A DNA stretch of 64,000 nt from Bifidobacterium angulatum (GTDB lineage Bacteria > Actinomycetota > Actinomycetes > Actinomycetales > Bifidobacteriaceae): the NCBI GenBank assembly GCA_905207115.1, contig CAJLKD010000006.1:29-64028 (forward strand). Direction: 5' to 3'. The notes under the pieces are model-generated. The model was not told where the DNA came from. It searched no databases and saw nothing but the letters and a program-made list of their open reading frames with translations. The position numbers were made by a program, and so were the translations under genes. Position 1 is the stretch's first letter, and each line of letters begins with the position of its first letter. Positions 26,371-51,119 of the stretch are shown here, piece after piece.

Positions 26371-26473
26371 TGTGGATAACTCAGCCTGCAGGTTATGCAC
26401 ATTACGCGGCTCTCGGCGCTCATTACGGCAAGTTATGCACACGGGGAAACGGCCATCCACAGATTCATCCACA
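26371..26473. promoter_or_regulatory. DnaA-box cluster
   Basis: TGTGGATAA 26371 (perfect), TTATGCACA 26393 and 26433, TCATCCACA 26465, CCATCCACA 26453. Confidence 0.6.
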
Positions 26474-30156: not shown

Positions 30157-30376
30157 CCAGTGACTGGATGATTTTCTCGCTCACATGCCAGTCAGCGATC
30201 AAAAACATCCAGCCGCTGGAAAAATACAGACGCTCAGCCCATCCCCACACGCCACAAACATCCACTGGCTGGATATTTATCCCGCTCACATGCCGTCCAG
30301 CGACCGAAATCACCCAGCCAATGGGAAATACGGACGCTGACGACCCCCTCACACGCCACAAACATCCAGCCAGTGG
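30157..30376. repeat. array A of CCA-N5-TGG motifs, 5 copies at 52-53 bp spacing
   Basis: Cores at 30157, 30209, 30262, 30314, 30366. Confidence 0.85.
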
Positions 30377-46328: not shown

Positions 46329-47873
46329 TCACTTGGCCTGGCCGTCGAGCCAGGAAGCGTTCAGCGACTTCCAGATCGGGCCGTTCCATTCGTCTTCCAG
46401 CGCGGCTTCAAGGGCTGCGGCCGGCTTGTACATCACTTCGTCACGCTGCTGCGGCGCGATGAACTGGAAACCGACAGGCAGTCCGTCGTCGCTCAGGCCG
46501 GCCGGGATGCTCATGGCCGGAACGCCGGCGAGGTTGGCCGGAATAGTGGTGATATCGATGGCGTACATGGCCATCGGATCCTCAGTCTTCTCACCGAACT
46601 TGAAGGCGGTGACCGGGCTGGTCGGGCCAATGAGCACGTCGACCTTCTCGAACGCCTTCTTGAAGTCGTCGATGATGAGGGTACGGACCTTCTGCGCGGA
46701 ACCGTACCAGGCATCGTAATAACCGGCGGACAGCGCATAGGTGCCGAGGATGATACGACGCTTGACCTCGTCGCCGAAGCCGGCCTCGCGGGTGTAGGCC
46801 ATCATGTTGGCTGCAGTCTGCGGCACGTTGTCCGGCGGCATCACGCGCAGGCCGTAGCGCATGCCATCATAACGGGCCAGGTTGGAGCTGACCTCGGACG
46901 GCATGATGATGTAGTACGCGCCCAGGGAGTACGGCAGGTGCGGCAGAGACACCTCGGTGACTTCAGCACCCATCTCCTCAAGCTTCTTCACGCCCTCGTT
47001 GAAACGAGCTTCGACGCCCGGCTGGAATCCGTCGCCGCCAAGCTCCTTGATCAGACCGACCTTGAGACCCTTCAGATCGCGCTTCATGCCTTCACGGGCG
47101 GCGGCGACCATCGGACGCGGGCCCTCCGGAATGGAAGTAGAGTCACGCTTATCATGGCCGCCGATGATCTCCTGCAGCAGTGCGGAGTCGAGCACGGTGC
47201 GGGAGCACGGACCGATCTGATCGAGCGAGGAAGCCATGGCGATGGCGCCGAAACGGGAAACACCACCATAGGTGGGCTTGACGCCGACAGTGCCGGTCAG
47301 CGCGCCCGGCTGGCGGATGGAGCCACCTGTATCAGTGCCGAGGGCCAGCGGAGCTTCGAATGCCGCCACAGCGGAAGCGGAGCCGCCGCCGGAGCCGCCG
47401 GGGACGCGGTCGGTATCCCACGGATTATGCGTGGTCTTGTATGCGGAATGCTCGGTGGAGGAACCCTGCGCGAACTCATCCAGGTTGGTCTTGCCGAGAA
47501 TCGGCATGCCGGCAGCCTTGAGCTTTTCGATAACGGTTGCGTCGTACGGGGGGATCCAACCTTCGAGGATCTTGGAAGCTGCGGTGGTTTCGATGCCCTT
47601 GGTGACGATCATGTCCTTGATCGCGATCGGCACGCCTGCCAGCTCCGGCAACGCGGCCTTCTCCTCGGCGCTCTTGGCATCGAAGGCATCGGCCTGTTCG
47701 CGGGCCTCGTCGGCGGAGACCTTCAGGAAGGCCTGCACGCTCGGCTCGGCGGCTTCGATGACGTCAAGATGCGCGTCGACCAGTTCGCGGCTGGAAACCT
47801 CGCCCTTCTTGATGGCCGCGCCCATTTCGGCAGCGGAAAGCTTGACCAGATCTGCTACGTTCGTCATGCTCAC
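46329..47873 (-). CDS. gatA: Asp/Glu-tRNA amidotransferase subunit A
   Basis: Amidase signature [18 protein letters not shown]. Confidence 0.97.
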
Positions 47874-48169
47874 TCCTCGCTTCCCAGAATGCGCGGGGCA
47901 ACAAACATGCCCGCCTCGGTCTTCGGGCCGCCGGCAAGAGCCTCGGCCTGGGTCAACGGCGTCTCAGGAACGTCGGGGCGCAGGTACGCTTCCAGCGGAA
48001 TCGGGTTGGCGGTCGGTTCAACATCGTCGGTGGCGACTTCCTGAACCATATCGATGGAGTCGGCAATGACGTTCAGCTCGCCCTGCAGGCGGGTAATTTC
48101 TTCATCGCTCAGTGCGATTCGGGCCAAATCGCCCAAATGCACGATTTCTTCTTTGGTGAAAGTAGGCAT
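47870..48169 (-). CDS. gatC: Asp/Glu-tRNA amidotransferase subunit C
   Basis: [10 protein letters not shown], operon position. Confidence 0.95.
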
Positions 48170-48353
48170 GGCTTTAACAGTATCGCGTCTGTGTGACGAG
48201 CACGCGCCCTATTTCATGCCAATTCCAGGCCCCTCACATCGTTTTGGAATCTCGACCGCCCGCGAGCTCGGCCACCACTCGGCCGCAGTTCCGCAAAGCC
48301 AACATGCATACTGCCCGGTGCTGTTATGTCAGTTCGGCCAGCGACCGATTTCC

Positions 48354-48522
48354 CCACCGGCTGGATGAATACGGACGCCCAAAACCCGTCTACCGGCCAT
48401 TCCTCCCACCGACTGGATAAAAACACCCTCTCACATGCCCCTCAGACGCCCAAAACATCCAGCCAATAGGAAAAGCAACCATTGAAGCACCACTCAGACG
48501 CCAAAATCATCCAGCCAATGGA
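48354..48522. repeat. array B of CCA-N5-TGG motifs, 4 copies at 52-53 bp spacing
   Basis: Cores at 48354, 48406, 48459, 48511; 48394-48522 is a direct repeat of 49890-50018. Confidence 0.88.
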
Positions 48523-48820
48523 ATAATCAGGACGCTCGCAAGCCAACCAGCAGTCATTCCCGCCCACGCCCGGAAACAAAGGCGCCATCCATCCGCACTG
48601 AAAAGCCCGTCACCTCTCAGCGCCCGGAAAACCGATTCCTGTTTTGGCGAACACGAACCTGGTAGGCATCTCTTTCAACGCCTAGGAAACCATTCAGCAG
48701 AAGCCCCTCCGCCCTCCCCAATTACGCCAAACCACCCGCCGACACGCGCAGGAACCACGAGTTATCCACAACCGGCAATCAGACTTTCCGAGGGCAGCCT
48801 CCGCAAGATAGCGTCAAATC

Positions 48821-49774
48821 ATGAAAGCCTATCCTCAAGTCGACCGACTGCTTGACCAGTCCGAAAAAATGCAATGCTGCGCCCACAGCACCAATTCACT
48901 CATTCAAAAAGGCCTCTATCGAAGGTATCTTGCGGGCGATCTGGCCAAACCATACCCCGGCCTGTATTCTCGTCACGAATATTGGAATCGTCTAAACGGC
49001 GCCGAACAATCACTGCATATGGCACGCACGCTCAAGGGAATGCACCCAGACTGGGTATTTGCCGGGCTCACCGCAGCAGCCGCATACGGCTTCGAACACC
49101 AGTGGTTCCTTCATCATGAAATAACCATCACGCTTTCCACTCATGGCTCATATCGGCCACATGACAAGCTTCATGTCATCTACAGCCCATACCCAAAGCA
49201 CGATGCAACAATAGCAAGCGGAATCCCGGTCACCAATAAGGCCCGCACGCTTGTCGATTGCGGCAATACGCAGGAATTCCGAGGCGCACTACCAGTTTTC
49301 GATTCCGCAGCCGCAGGCGGGCTCGATGAGGCGGCCCTGATGAAGGAGTGCTCGCTCATCACTCAAGATTGCACGAAAATCATCAAGCTGCTGCGCTACA
49401 CCAATGCTGCAAGCGATAACGGCGGCGAGTCCTTTGCGCGCGGAACGATGATTGAGGCTGGTTTTGCGGAACCGCGGTTACAGGTCGTTATTGTGGATCC
49501 CGCAACCGGACAGCAATACAGGGTCGATTTTCTTTGGCGTACCGACGACGGCAGAAGCATCGTTTGCGAGTTCGACGGTACGGCCAAGTACGTCGATCCG
49601 GAAATGACCAGCAATAGAAGCATCCAGGAGACCGTTCAATTGGAGCGAAATCGTGAGCAAGGTCTTCGTCGCGCCGGAGTCACGGATATCATCCGGCTCA
49701 CGTTCAATGATGTACTGCAGATAAAACCAATGGTGGCAAAACTGCGAAGGTCGGGTGTACCGATGGCCTCGTGA
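48821..49774 (+). CDS. AbiEi-like N-terminal region + DUF559/Vsr-like PD-(D/E)XK nuclease domain protein
   Basis: AGLTAAAAYG, GIPVTNKARTLVD, SDNGGES..R, P.LQV, YRVDFLW, IVCEFDG..KY, E..RE..L...G...IIR. Confidence 0.75.
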   Translation: MKAYPQVDRLLDQSEKMQCCAHSTNSLIQKGLYRRYLAGDLAKPYPGLYSRHEYWNRLNGAEQSLHMARTLKGMHPDWVFAGLTAAAAYGFEHQWFLHHEITITLSTHGSYRPHDKLHVIYSPYPKHDATIASGIPVTNKARTLVDCGNTQEFRGALPVFDSAAAGGLDEAALMKECSLITQDCTKIIKLLRYTNAASDNGGESFARGTMIEAGFAEPRLQVVIVDPATGQQYRVDFLWRTDDGRSIVCEFDGTAKYVDPEMTSNRSIQETVQLERNREQGLRRAGVTDIIRLTFNDVLQIKPMVAKLRRSGVPMAS

Positions 49775-49797
49775 ATAACCTCATCCGTCCATTTCTT

Positions 49798-50018
49798 CTA
49801 CTGGCTGGAGGATTTTGCTTCGCGCATGGCTTCAAAACGGTCAAAACATCCAGCCGCTGGATGAATACGGACGGTTAGAGGCCTTCCATCGGCCATTTCT
49901 CCCACCGACTGGATAAAAACACCCTCTCACATGCCCCTCAGACGCCCAAAATATCCAGCCAATGGGAAAAGCAACCATTGAAGCACCACTCAGACACCAA
50001 AATCATCCAGCCAGTGGA
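49798..50018. repeat. array C of CCA-N5-TGG motifs, 5 copies at 52-53 bp spacing
   Basis: Cores at 49798, 49850, 49902, 49955, 50007. Confidence 0.88.
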
Positions 50019-50291
50019 GGAATCGGGGCTACAAAGGAACTGAACCAGGTGAAGAACCGGGCCAAAAGGAAAAACTGGCTCAGGAGAAAACTGGATCGGG
50101 AAAAACTAAACCGAGGAACAACAAGAACAGGAAAGAATCAGACCAAACGAAGAACTGGACATATGGTGCGACACAGCACGGAGGAATCGCCACGAACAAA
50201 CTACGACCGATACCTGCCGGAACCAACACCGGTGCCGGCCGGCATCCCCAGAAACCGGCACCGGGCAGGTCAACTCCCCCTAGTCAGGCAG

Positions 50292-51119
50292 TCAGCCCCG
50301 AATTGCTGCATGCTGGGCGATCCAAGCATGCATGGAAACGGCGGCCGCGGCACCGGCGTTAATGGAGCGGACCGAGCCGAATTGGGAGATGTAGACCACA
50401 TCGTCAGCCAGTTCGAGCGCTTTTTCGGACAGGCCGGGGCCTTCCGCGCCGAAGAGCATGAGGCAGCGTTTGGGGAAACGGTAGGTTTCCATAGGCACGG
50501 CACCGGGGATAATATCCATGGCGATCACACGGGAGGCTTCAAGCTCGCGAATACGTGCCTCGGCCGCATCAACCTGGGCGGTAGCCGCGGCGACGACAGC
50601 TGTATCGCCATGTACGGCGGCCTCATGCGCATGGAACGCTGCGGCTCCGGCCTCGGCGCGGGCGGCGGCGATCTCACCGGCGATGCGGTTATGCCAGCAT
50701 TCCACCAGCTGCGCGATCGACGGATGATTCTCGACATGCTGGTACAGCTCGGTCATCAACGCGCCTTTGCGGTTCCACTTATGCGGGCCGACGATATGCA
50801 CGCGCCTGGCCTGGAACGCGTTCGCCGTGCGCACCATGGAGCCGATATTGAAATCGTGCGTCCAGTTCTCCACGGCGACTTCGAAATCGTGGCGTCCGCG
50901 CGCATCCAAGTCGGCTTTGATCGCCGCAACCGTCCAATACCGGTACCGGTCGAGCACGTTACGACGATCGCCTTCGTCGAGCAGTTGCGGATCATACTGC
51001 ACGTCGGTCGGGCGAGGTTCACCCGGATGGGCTTCTTCCCACGGGCCTACGCCGACCTCGCGGAATGTGGGTTCGCCGGAGGCCTTCGCGGCCACATCGA
51101 TAGGGTGCGGCGCGTGCAT
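50292..51119 (-). CDS. TrmH/SpoU-family RNA methyltransferase
   Basis: HDFNIGSMVRTANAF, FGAEGPGLS, RSINAGAAA. Confidence 0.9.
   Translation of the reverse strand: MHAPHPIDVAAKASGEPTFREVGVGPWEEAHPGEPRPTDVQYDPQLLDEGDRRNVLDRYRYWTVAAIKADLDARGRHDFEVAVENWTHDFNIGSMVRTANAFQARRVHIVGPHKWNRKGALMTELYQHVENHPSIAQLVECWHNRIAGEIAAARAEAGAAAFHAHEAAVHGDTAVVAAATAQVDAAEARIRELEASRVIAMDIIPGAVPMETYRFPKRCLMLFGAEGPGLSEKALELADDVVYISQFGSVRSINAGAAAAVSMHAWIAQHAAIRG

Follow-up and report, generated by a model that had tools for sequence, protein, structure and literature searches.

Within a 64,000-nucleotide stretch of the Bifidobacterium contig CAJLKD010000006.1 (the window, to whose numbering all positions refer unless another contig is named), the gene for a 317-residue protein, P0001, stands between two arrays of quasi-palindromic cores spaced at 52 or 53 bp. 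Comparative evidence supports the idea that the gene and the repeats form a cognate repeat-plus-nuclease system, in which binding and cutting of the repeats by the protein remain predictions from sequence. We consider it moderately probable that we are dealing with a vertically inherited partnership, whose protein is likely to bind the phased cores and likely to keep the arrays alive. The window is part of an assembly of 1.46 Mb in 56 contigs (70% complete; guanine-plus-cytosine [GC] content, 59%), the window genome, whose nearest named relative is B. erythrocebi.

Arrays flank homologous genes

The initial annotation had suggested asking whether homologues of this gene carry periodic arrays in their flanks. 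We sampled 80 homologous loci and searched 900-bp flanks for any 9-mer present at least four times. Such a repeat was found at 62 loci, which favors this pairing at a level far above outer-flank and random controls, and at 38 of the 80 a 9-mer occurred at least twice on both sides of the gene. With a threshold of at least five copies, 43/72 gene-adjacent flank pairs scored, versus 2/72 outer flank pairs and 9/500 random draws from the window genome. The periods of the flank repeats cluster at 52 to 53 bp and at 62 to 63 bp (often divided as 36+26, 37+26, or 24+39 between inverted half-sites), that is, at five or six helical turns, and their agreement with the division of the protein tree into two main clades is no more than rough. 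Several loci outside Bifidobacterium, in the same taxonomic order, show mirrored flank repeats as well. Four loci (L012 to L015) titled Anaerovoracaceae, Dysosmobacter, Acidaminococcaceae, or simply “bacterium” carry a bifidobacterial gatCA and the same layout, with a GatA 91 to 92% identical to that of the window; they probably represent mis-binned contigs.

The gene-adjacent enrichment speaks against the notion that the arrays are ordinary intergenic tandem repeats, or repeats resembling bacterial interspersed mosaic elements (BIMEs), which arise from host replication and recombination and have gathered in long noncoding gaps where family genes happen to sit. Arrays do occur away from family genes, 18 of the 80 loci are array-poor, and some intergenic sites, such as the one between ppa and mntP, act as hot spots whose repeat family varies from species to species, all of which such a coincidence would accommodate. 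Yet it does not account for the private repeat of each paralogue, with three families around three paralogues in a single genome, or for the lack of arrays at empty gatC-trmH sites and in the gene-less genome G064 (see below), and we regard it as very improbable.

The repeat follows the protein and not the genome

The window genome encodes three paralogues of the family and contains three palindromic repeat families, with periods of 52 to 53, 20, and 51 bp, each of which is concentrated around its own paralogue. The paralogue on contig C3 (in C3:64500-66700; 38% identical) has on both flanks arrays of units of the form GTGAY-N3-RTYAC with a 20-bp period, laid out as large imperfect palindromes, and 26 of the 29 matches to this motif in the genome lie within about 20 kb of the gene. 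The paralogue on contig C1 (C1:38224-39165) is surrounded by 22-nt palindromes, GTCCGATTC-N4-GAATCGGAC, with a very regular 51-bp period. Contig C1 has 36 of these palindromes, including two immediately upstream of the gene, and C3 has 7; they form arrays of two to six units at about a dozen intergenic sites (C1:14889-63022 and C3:173-49096).

Across the sampled loci, a repeated 9-mer was common to 12 of 16 cross-genome sister pairs and to 59 of all 2080 pairs but to 0 of 25 within-genome paralogue pairs. The absence of sharing within genomes excludes a generic genome-wide repeat: the repeat follows the protein and not the genome, just as the suggested covariation of motif and protein implies. 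A stronger test than sister sharing comes from arrays that are unlinked to the gene. In the window genome, an array on contig C5 that is linked to an ABC-ATPase gene carries ATCCAGCCNNTGG cores, matching the flanks of the P0001 gene. The orthologous ABC-ATPase of B. santillanense (92% identical over 207 amino acids) has an array of five units with a 53-bp period, whose core reads CGAGAGAT-N-GCCAC-N3/4-GTGGC-N-ATCTCTCG; this core is also found on the flanks of the gatC-linked gene of B. santillanense and, in that species, at about 12 dispersed loci. The unlinked arrays change their core in step with the gene’s own flanks.

Presence of the gene and presence of the arrays

A survey of 60 species yielded 56 usable regions upstream of gatC, 7 of which contained a family gene and 1 a fragment, while in 10 trmH was directly adjacent. 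At least three repeats at about 52 to 53 bp were present at six of the seven gene-bearing gatC-trmH sites, and phased arrays were present at none of the 10 empty ones, in keeping with the view of the initial annotation that gene and arrays belong together. The strict palindromic core TCCAGYSRYTGGA, counted on both strands, occurs 38, 41, and 9 times in three species with a 69 to 70% identical orthologue, and at most 9 times in each of the other 57 of the 60 sampled species. Among complete genomes, G049 has 19 perfect palindromic cores; G064, which has no family gene, has four solitary perfect cores, plus two degenerate cores at its ppa-mntP site. At the same site at least six cores stand in phase in G049 and none is present in B. 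ruminantium; B. rousetti carries a hairpin repeat of a different kind there. One of the solitary perfect cores of G064, TTCCTCCAGTGACTGGAGGAA, sits exactly at the empty gatC-trmH junction (L112, G064:C1:1825626-1830125, first 170 bases) and may be either the relic of a deletion between flank repeats or a terminator-like seed.

The ppa-mntP site is a hot spot. Downstream of ppa, the B. rousetti locus (L192, G082:C35:70075-73584) combines the long hairpin repeat (CAGCGCAACAATCTCCGGA...) with a GGGTGACA tandem. In several species a conserved leader of about 130 nt lies upstream of mntP; in the window it has no Rfam match at the gathering score.

Inheritance and array dynamics

The layout gatA-gatC-[gene]-trmH recurs in many species, with GatA about 90% identical and the family protein only 43 to 50% identical, which indicates that the gene is old, vertically inherited, and fast-evolving. 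The arrays evolve as well. The window genome and B. erythrocebi have syntenic arrays at the ppa-mntP and ABC-ATPase sites, which differ in length (e.g., 326 versus 865 bp), the array of B. erythrocebi at the ppa-mntP site being longer than its counterpart in the window (array A). The two flank segments of the window gene are 96% identical to each other and 78 to 87% identical to the orthologous flanks, the gene itself being 85.7% identical. Since their mutual identity exceeds the orthologous identity, the flanks must have been homogenized or reduplicated after the species split.

One might ask, in view of such duplicated flanks, whether the whole array-gene-array unit (48345-50026) is a transposon-like or homing element, whose nuclease makes a break that allows the unit to copy itself into new sites and whose nonautonomous derivatives are the gene-less arrays. 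The inverted terminal arms and the 178-nt direct repeats around the gene would suit such a cassette, as would the patchy occupancy of the gatC-trmH site (7 of the 56 regions occupied, 10 clearly empty), a GC content below that of the flanks, up to 10 copies per genome, and the fact that the closest nuclease fold is the catalytic domain of a homing endonuclease (see below). However, the gatC-linked genes fall into separate clades and have diverged along with their hosts, and the presence of a different repeat at each paralogue implies that the copies are old. The family was found in none of 50,697 phage records and in only 2 of 72,556 plasmid records, both longer than 400 kb. A target-site signature was not found for the unit, and the solitary core of G064 fits a deletion between flank repeats as well as it fits a vacant target. 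We therefore think a mobile cassette improbable.

An AbiEi-like module fused to a nuclease-type domain

Neither Pfam nor NCBIfam has a model that recognizes P0001, DUF559 and Vsr included, even at an E value of ≤10, and sequence and profile searches of the PDB gave no significant match. In a structure model built on 22 relatives (predicted local distance difference test score [pLDDT], 90.3; predicted template modeling score [pTM], 0.86), residues 2 to 195 superpose on a whole AbiEi antitoxin, that of Streptococcus agalactiae (6y8q_A; Z score, 10.0; 179 residues aligned), and on Mycobacterium tuberculosis Rv2827c (1zel_B; Z score, 7.3). Foldseek matches to AbiEi have E values of 2e-4 and 3.6e-4, and PADLOC reports weak AbiEi matches (E value, 6e-5). 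The Pfam models AbiEi_4 or AbiEi_1 touch three of the 22 relatives, though not P0001 itself, and REase_MTES_1575 touches one (E value, 0.11). The remainder of the protein, residues ~200 to 313, finds its best nuclease fold match in the catalytic domain of the homing endonuclease I-Bth0305I (3r3p_B; Z score, 8.8), followed by NGO0050 (3hrl_A; Z score, 7.9; 22% identity) and Escherichia coli Vsr (1cw0_A; Z score, 7.3), with root mean square deviations of 2.7 to 3.2 across the three superpositions. At the fold level, then, the model describes P0001 as an AbiEi-like winged-helix module fused to a Vsr/DUF559-like PD-(D/E)xK nuclease-type domain, and the AbiEi/DUF559-like assignment of the initial annotation holds at that level.

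Of 81 family proteins, 80 share the motif NGGES...R.D...E.DG..KY...R exactly, which places the nuclease-type site under strong constraint. Residues E203, D236, E250, D252, and K256, likewise unchanged in 80 of the 81, are putative active-site residues, some of which may be the catalytic ones; the acidic/lysine motif lies on the second and third core strands of the model. Column conservation is lowest in the N-terminal winged-helix region (0.41 to 0.53, versus 0.63 in the nuclease domain).

A word-indexed search placed the relatives in 179 clusters, all named ones from Bifidobacterium, which are labeled as hypothetical, as “AbiEi family antitoxin domain-containing,” or, evidently wrongly, as “CTP synthase.” An exhaustive search at an E value of ≤0.001 gave 2919 representatives. 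Of 60 Bifidobacterium species sampled, 40 carry the family; outside the genus, it was found in 75 of 121 genomes from the same order. As to possible partners, the AbiEii toxin (PF08843) has no match in the 70%-complete window genome and does not lie beside the gene, and the Y1 transposase (PF01797) has no match in the window genome, G041, or G080, all of which bear arrays. We thus agree with the earlier statement that the gene has no cas, transposase, or toxin partner, having found no RAYT, AbiEii, or cas-like one.

A DnaA box upstream of the family

The sequence TTATCCACA, which we take to be the DnaA-box consensus, occurs in exact form within 250 bp upstream of 49 of the 80 family genes, 44 times on the strand of the gene, compared with 1 of 2026 control windows from the same loci. 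Its positions are mostly -59/-60 or -88 to -92, and its usual form is RGTTATCCACA. While the flank repeats differ between paralogues, this upstream box does not, which suggests, from sequence conservation, that the whole family may be under DnaA or replication-linked control. In the window genome, the main cluster of TTATCCACA lies on contig C8 and presumably marks oriC. A separate exact box at positions 26371-26379 (minus strand) has the extended form GAGTTATCCACAACAC, the same as upstream of several family genes in other species; no family gene is detectable near it.

Anatomy of the locus

The features of the locus are collected in Table 1. The P0001 gene is the sole long open reading frame (ORF) between gatC and the SpoU/TrmH-type gene; array B occupies the divergent intergenic region between gatC and the P0001 gene and array C lies between the convergent ends of the P0001 gene and trmH. 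The core intervals are 52, 53, and 52 bp in array B and 52, 52, 53, and 52 bp in array C. The segments 48394-48522 and 49890-50018 are 129-bp direct repeats with exactly five mismatches, and their similarity extends to 178 nt at 89%. The core spacing, both core orientations, the spacer classes, the perfect palindrome, and the 129-bp repeat were all described in the initial annotation and were all found again in the sequence. Two recurrent spacer words, CTCACATGCC (four copies) and AATACGGACG (three copies), occur in the window only within arrays A, B, or C. As the cores flip their orientation while the spacers keep theirs, the arrays can also be read as doublets of inverted cores of about 105 bp.

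Table 1. Features of the array-gene-array locus and of array A in the 64-kb window
Feature	Position	Strand	Remarks
gatC	47870-48169	-	Pfam GatC, TIGR00135
Array B, 4 quasi-palindromic cores	48345-48531		Centers 48359, 48411, 48464, 48516; orientations - - + +
Left copy of 178-nt direct repeat	48354-48531		Inside array B
Exact DnaA-box sequence TTATCCACA	48762-48770	+	59 nt upstream of start codon
Gene for 317-residue protein P0001	48821-49774	+	AbiEi-like module, residues 2-195; Vsr/DUF559-like domain, residues ~200-313
Array C, 5 cores	49793-50027		Centers 49803, 49855, 49907, 49960, 50012
Right copy of 178-nt direct repeat	49850-50027		Inside array C
Perfect palindrome CATCCAGC-C-GCTGGATG	49847-49863		Inside array C
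SpoU/TrmH-type methylase gene	50292-51119	-	
Entire array-gene-array unit	48345-50026		Inverted terminal arms 48345-48368 / 50003-50026, 24 nt, 88% complementary
Array A, 5 cores	30157-30376		Intervals 52, 53, 52, 52; 18.6 kb from the P0001 gene, in the gap between an inorganic pyrophosphatase gene and an mntP-type gene

Within the window, the motif CATCCAGCCRNTGG has 22 matches with at most two mismatches, 15 of which fall in three clusters; 100 shuffles gave 4.49 ± 2.56 matches, and none reached 22. The gene and its arrays have a GC content of 50 to 56%, compared with 62 to 66% in the flanks. Folded as single-stranded DNA, arrays B and C score better than shuffles (z, -2.44 and -3.57), which follows from their inverted cores and by itself is no argument for hairpin substrates. 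Rfam gave no match at an E value of ≤1 in 47500-51000, and at the gathering score the whole window contains only two tRNAs; in a simple scan of 48000-50400, no promoter-like site was found, and terminator-like sites were not more common than in shuffles. The suggestion of the initial annotation that array transcripts may be used finds no support in these data. Four sequencing read runs (three of DNA and one guessed to be of RNA) give only short contigs at the locus, which break at the repeats. Apparent deletion joints at the repeats in these reads were rejected as cross-mapping, as the joints carry spacer of the C5 array.

Degenerate A-rich repeats of short period adjoin both array C (50020-50290) and the C5 array (C5:60900-61160), with an AT skew of up to +0.59 and, at 50067-50107, a period of 16 according to the program TRF. 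Weaker CCAG..TGG-like words occur within them, and they may represent remnants of arrays or proto-arrays.

Helical phasing of the cores

Repeats of the window type amount to 28 cores in four arrays in the window genome, the other 60 matches being singletons. The fourth array, of 13 cores, is the one adjoining the ABC-ATPase gene (C5, 61162-61971). The motif is confined to a few arrays and not scattered genome-wide, an outcome that would have counted against the initial annotation. An alignment of 85 units reveals conservation of only about 23 nt (an A-rich flank, ATCCAGYCRNTGG, and a second A-rich flank), with spacers of about 30 nt that are free in sequence and fixed in length. B-DNA has about 10.5 bp per turn, and 52.5 bp correspond to five turns. 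Across 14 arrays from five genomes, 89 of the 96 center-to-center intervals deviate by no more than 1.5 bp from 52.5, 105, or 157.5 bp, and 72 are exactly 52 or 53 bp.

A proposed mechanism and its main rival

How might such a partnership work? By analogy with AbiEi and its inverted repeats, the variable winged-helix module may read the palindromic core of about 23 nt. Spacing of exactly five or six turns would place all sites on one face of the DNA and could thereby permit cooperative assembly or DNA bending. The nuclease domain is predicted to nick or cut at the cores, and the resulting strand breaks could provoke gene conversion or unequal recombination, leaving the arrays uniform in sequence and variable in length. 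Breaks at cores would also create arrays and might occasionally seed them at other intergenic sites, and the conserved DnaA box could tie expression of the gene to replication status.

The main rival, to which the mobile cassette and the coincidence of neighbors are less likely alternatives, is that the arrays are binding scaffolds and nothing more: phased landing sites for the winged helix, which would build a higher-order nucleoprotein structure for autoregulation, silencing, or chromosome organization. Slippage and ordinary recombination would then have produced the arrays, with selection acting on binding, and the nuclease would serve repair or attack on foreign DNA bearing the motif. The strict five- or six-turn spacing and the spacers of free sequence and fixed length suit a protein scaffold and not a transposing unit. 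The occurrence of cores in either orientation, the stability of array sites between species, and the retention of the nuclease motif in an array-poor subclade also favor this view. AbiEi is, moreover, an autoregulator that binds inverted repeats (PMC7319586). On the other hand, array C is one of several arrays situated where convergent genes end or well away from any promoter of the gene, and 4 to 14 sites on both sides far exceed the need of an operator. The switching of cores at unlinked sites and the homogenization of the flanks require active copying, which general recombination could, however, also supply. On balance, we judge the scaffold by itself to be unlikely, while taking it more seriously than any other competitor of the partnership of repeats and nuclease.

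Several observations weigh against that partnership. Of the 18 loci without clear flank arrays, 11 or 12 form one subclade, all 12 proteins of which keep the nuclease motif; the protein can thus persist without adjacent arrays, and the idea that array loss goes with loss of the nuclease motif had to be rejected. Common descent would by itself lead sister loci to share a motif. Genome G015 has no detectable family gene and still contains nine solitary, dispersed TCCAGYSRYTGGA palindromes (both strands), so that a simple rule of “no gene, no core” does not fit. In B. ruminantium, the gene is present, yet arrays are missing both from the ppa-mntP site and from the downstream side of the gene. Synteny between species extends to the array sites and the gene alike, giving no direct sign of recent movement, and the copy number is low, at 28 cores in four arrays of a 70%-complete genome. 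Finally, the assignment of the nuclease draws on fold scores (Z scores of 7 to 9) and the motif, with no significant match to a sequence model.

It is tempting to speculate further that in Actinomycetota a large class of nucleases, passed on vertically, writes repeats specific to each nuclease itself, so that each paralogue would keep private, helically phased palindromes next to the gene that encodes it and at selected sites between other genes, as DnaA-wired, coevolving protein-DNA scaffolds. This would amount to a second invention, independent in mechanism, of the principle of repetitive extragenic palindromic (REP) sequences and their RAYT enzymes (see below), here on double-stranded DNA. 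We put this forward tentatively, as a plausible extension that falls short of being probable.

Comparison with known systems

Full-text searching, with subscription-only papers outside its coverage, returned no literature in which flanking repeats are connected with a DUF559-like or AbiEi-like protein, nor any description of these bifidobacterial arrays; to judge by titles, the papers retrieved for DUF559 mention it in passing. A survey of GTAG/CGTC repeats (PMC3733652) does not mention Bifidobacterium or Actinobacteria.

Several known systems come to mind, nonetheless. A CRISPR array was rejected, given cores in both orientations, spacers that recur in classes, and no further ORF between gatC and trmH. 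Mycobacterial interspersed repetitive units (MIRUs) are intergenic head-to-tail units of about 50 bp, found at a limited number of loci, whose copy number varies between relatives, and our arrays share with them the intergenic units of about 50 bp, the small number of loci, and the varying copy number. We know of no MIRU with a cognate flanking gene, with a palindromic core in either orientation, or with paralogue-specific families.

With the Vsr/DUF559/EDxHD-type PD-(D/E)xK proteins, P0001 has in common a Vsr-like alpha/beta core and a conserved acidic/lysine motif on the central strands. It differs in matching no Pfam model, in being fused to an AbiEi module that is predicted to read sequence, and in lacking a mismatch-repair or intron-homing context; its nuclease motif also has a lysine where DUF559 presumably has a histidine. 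The likeness to the AbiE type IV toxin-antitoxin systems lies in the whole AbiEi fold of residues 2 to 195. In those systems, AbiEi binds inverted repeats in its own promoter (PMC7319586). Here, in contrast, an AbiEii (DUF1814) nucleotidyltransferase partner is missing and a nuclease domain is fused instead, and, in place of a single operator, the putative sites form long phased arrays that lie to either side of the gene and also at unlinked positions. An AbiE toxin-antitoxin pair was therefore rejected, the neighbors being gatC and a SpoU-type methylase gene and PF08843 having no match.

The closest parallel is that of REP sequences, the BIMEs that they form, and RAYT genes, to our knowledge so far the one well-studied case of a short-repeat family kept alive by a dedicated, vertically inherited enzyme. 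RAYT enzymes belong to the IS200/IS605-type HUH Y1 transposases (Pfam Y1_Tnp, PF01797); they and their repeats are the subject of Nunvar 2010 (PMC2817692) and of the RAREFAN preprint (10.1101/2022.05.22.493013). In PMC2817692, RAYT genes are described as fast-evolving, enclosed by inverted repeats and accompanied by BIME-type arrays, as coevolving with their repeat, and as the condition for its presence. Our system shares much of this. The gene stands alone between inverted copies of the palindromic repeat that belongs to it (the arms at the window locus being 88% complementary, and both sides being involved at 38 of the 80 loci), and its flanks are often arrays of regularly spaced repeats in alternating orientation, as in BIMEs. 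Gene and repeat covary, a repeat type being found only with the matching gene, with the caveat of common descent at sister loci. The gene evolves much faster than its neighbors under mostly vertical inheritance, and array length varies between relatives.

There are differences as well. The enzyme has an AbiEi-like plus Vsr-like fold and not that of an HUH Y1 transposase, and PF01797 was not found in three array-bearing genomes. Copies number in the tens (28 in the window genome, 19 in G049, and about 12 loci in G080), compared with more than 100 dispersed REP copies. Our cores are spaced at exactly five or six turns with spacers of fixed length, whereas the inter-REP segments of Stenotrophomonas vary in length (PMC2817692), and the sites are largely syntenic between species. 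The substrates here are likely to be double-stranded palindromes and not single-strand hairpins. Given the unrelated enzyme, the tens of copies, the syntenic sites, and the fixed spacer length, a RAYT-driven REP family was rejected.

What remains is the same genomic logic with an unrelated protein: covariation, enclosure, dynamic arrays, and decay where the gene is gone. If this holds true, a large orphan protein family would gain a function, and the lineage-specific intergenic arrays that break bifidobacterial genome assemblies would gain an explanation. The arrays would offer ready strain-typing markers and, together with their proteins, a natural set of protein/DNA-site pairs with diverged specificities, and the five- or six-turn spacing and the conserved DnaA box would be concrete handles on the mechanism. 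Provided that the protein does bind and maintain its repeats, the gene and the arrays described here would constitute an undescribed counterpart of REP/RAYT, built around an unrelated protein.

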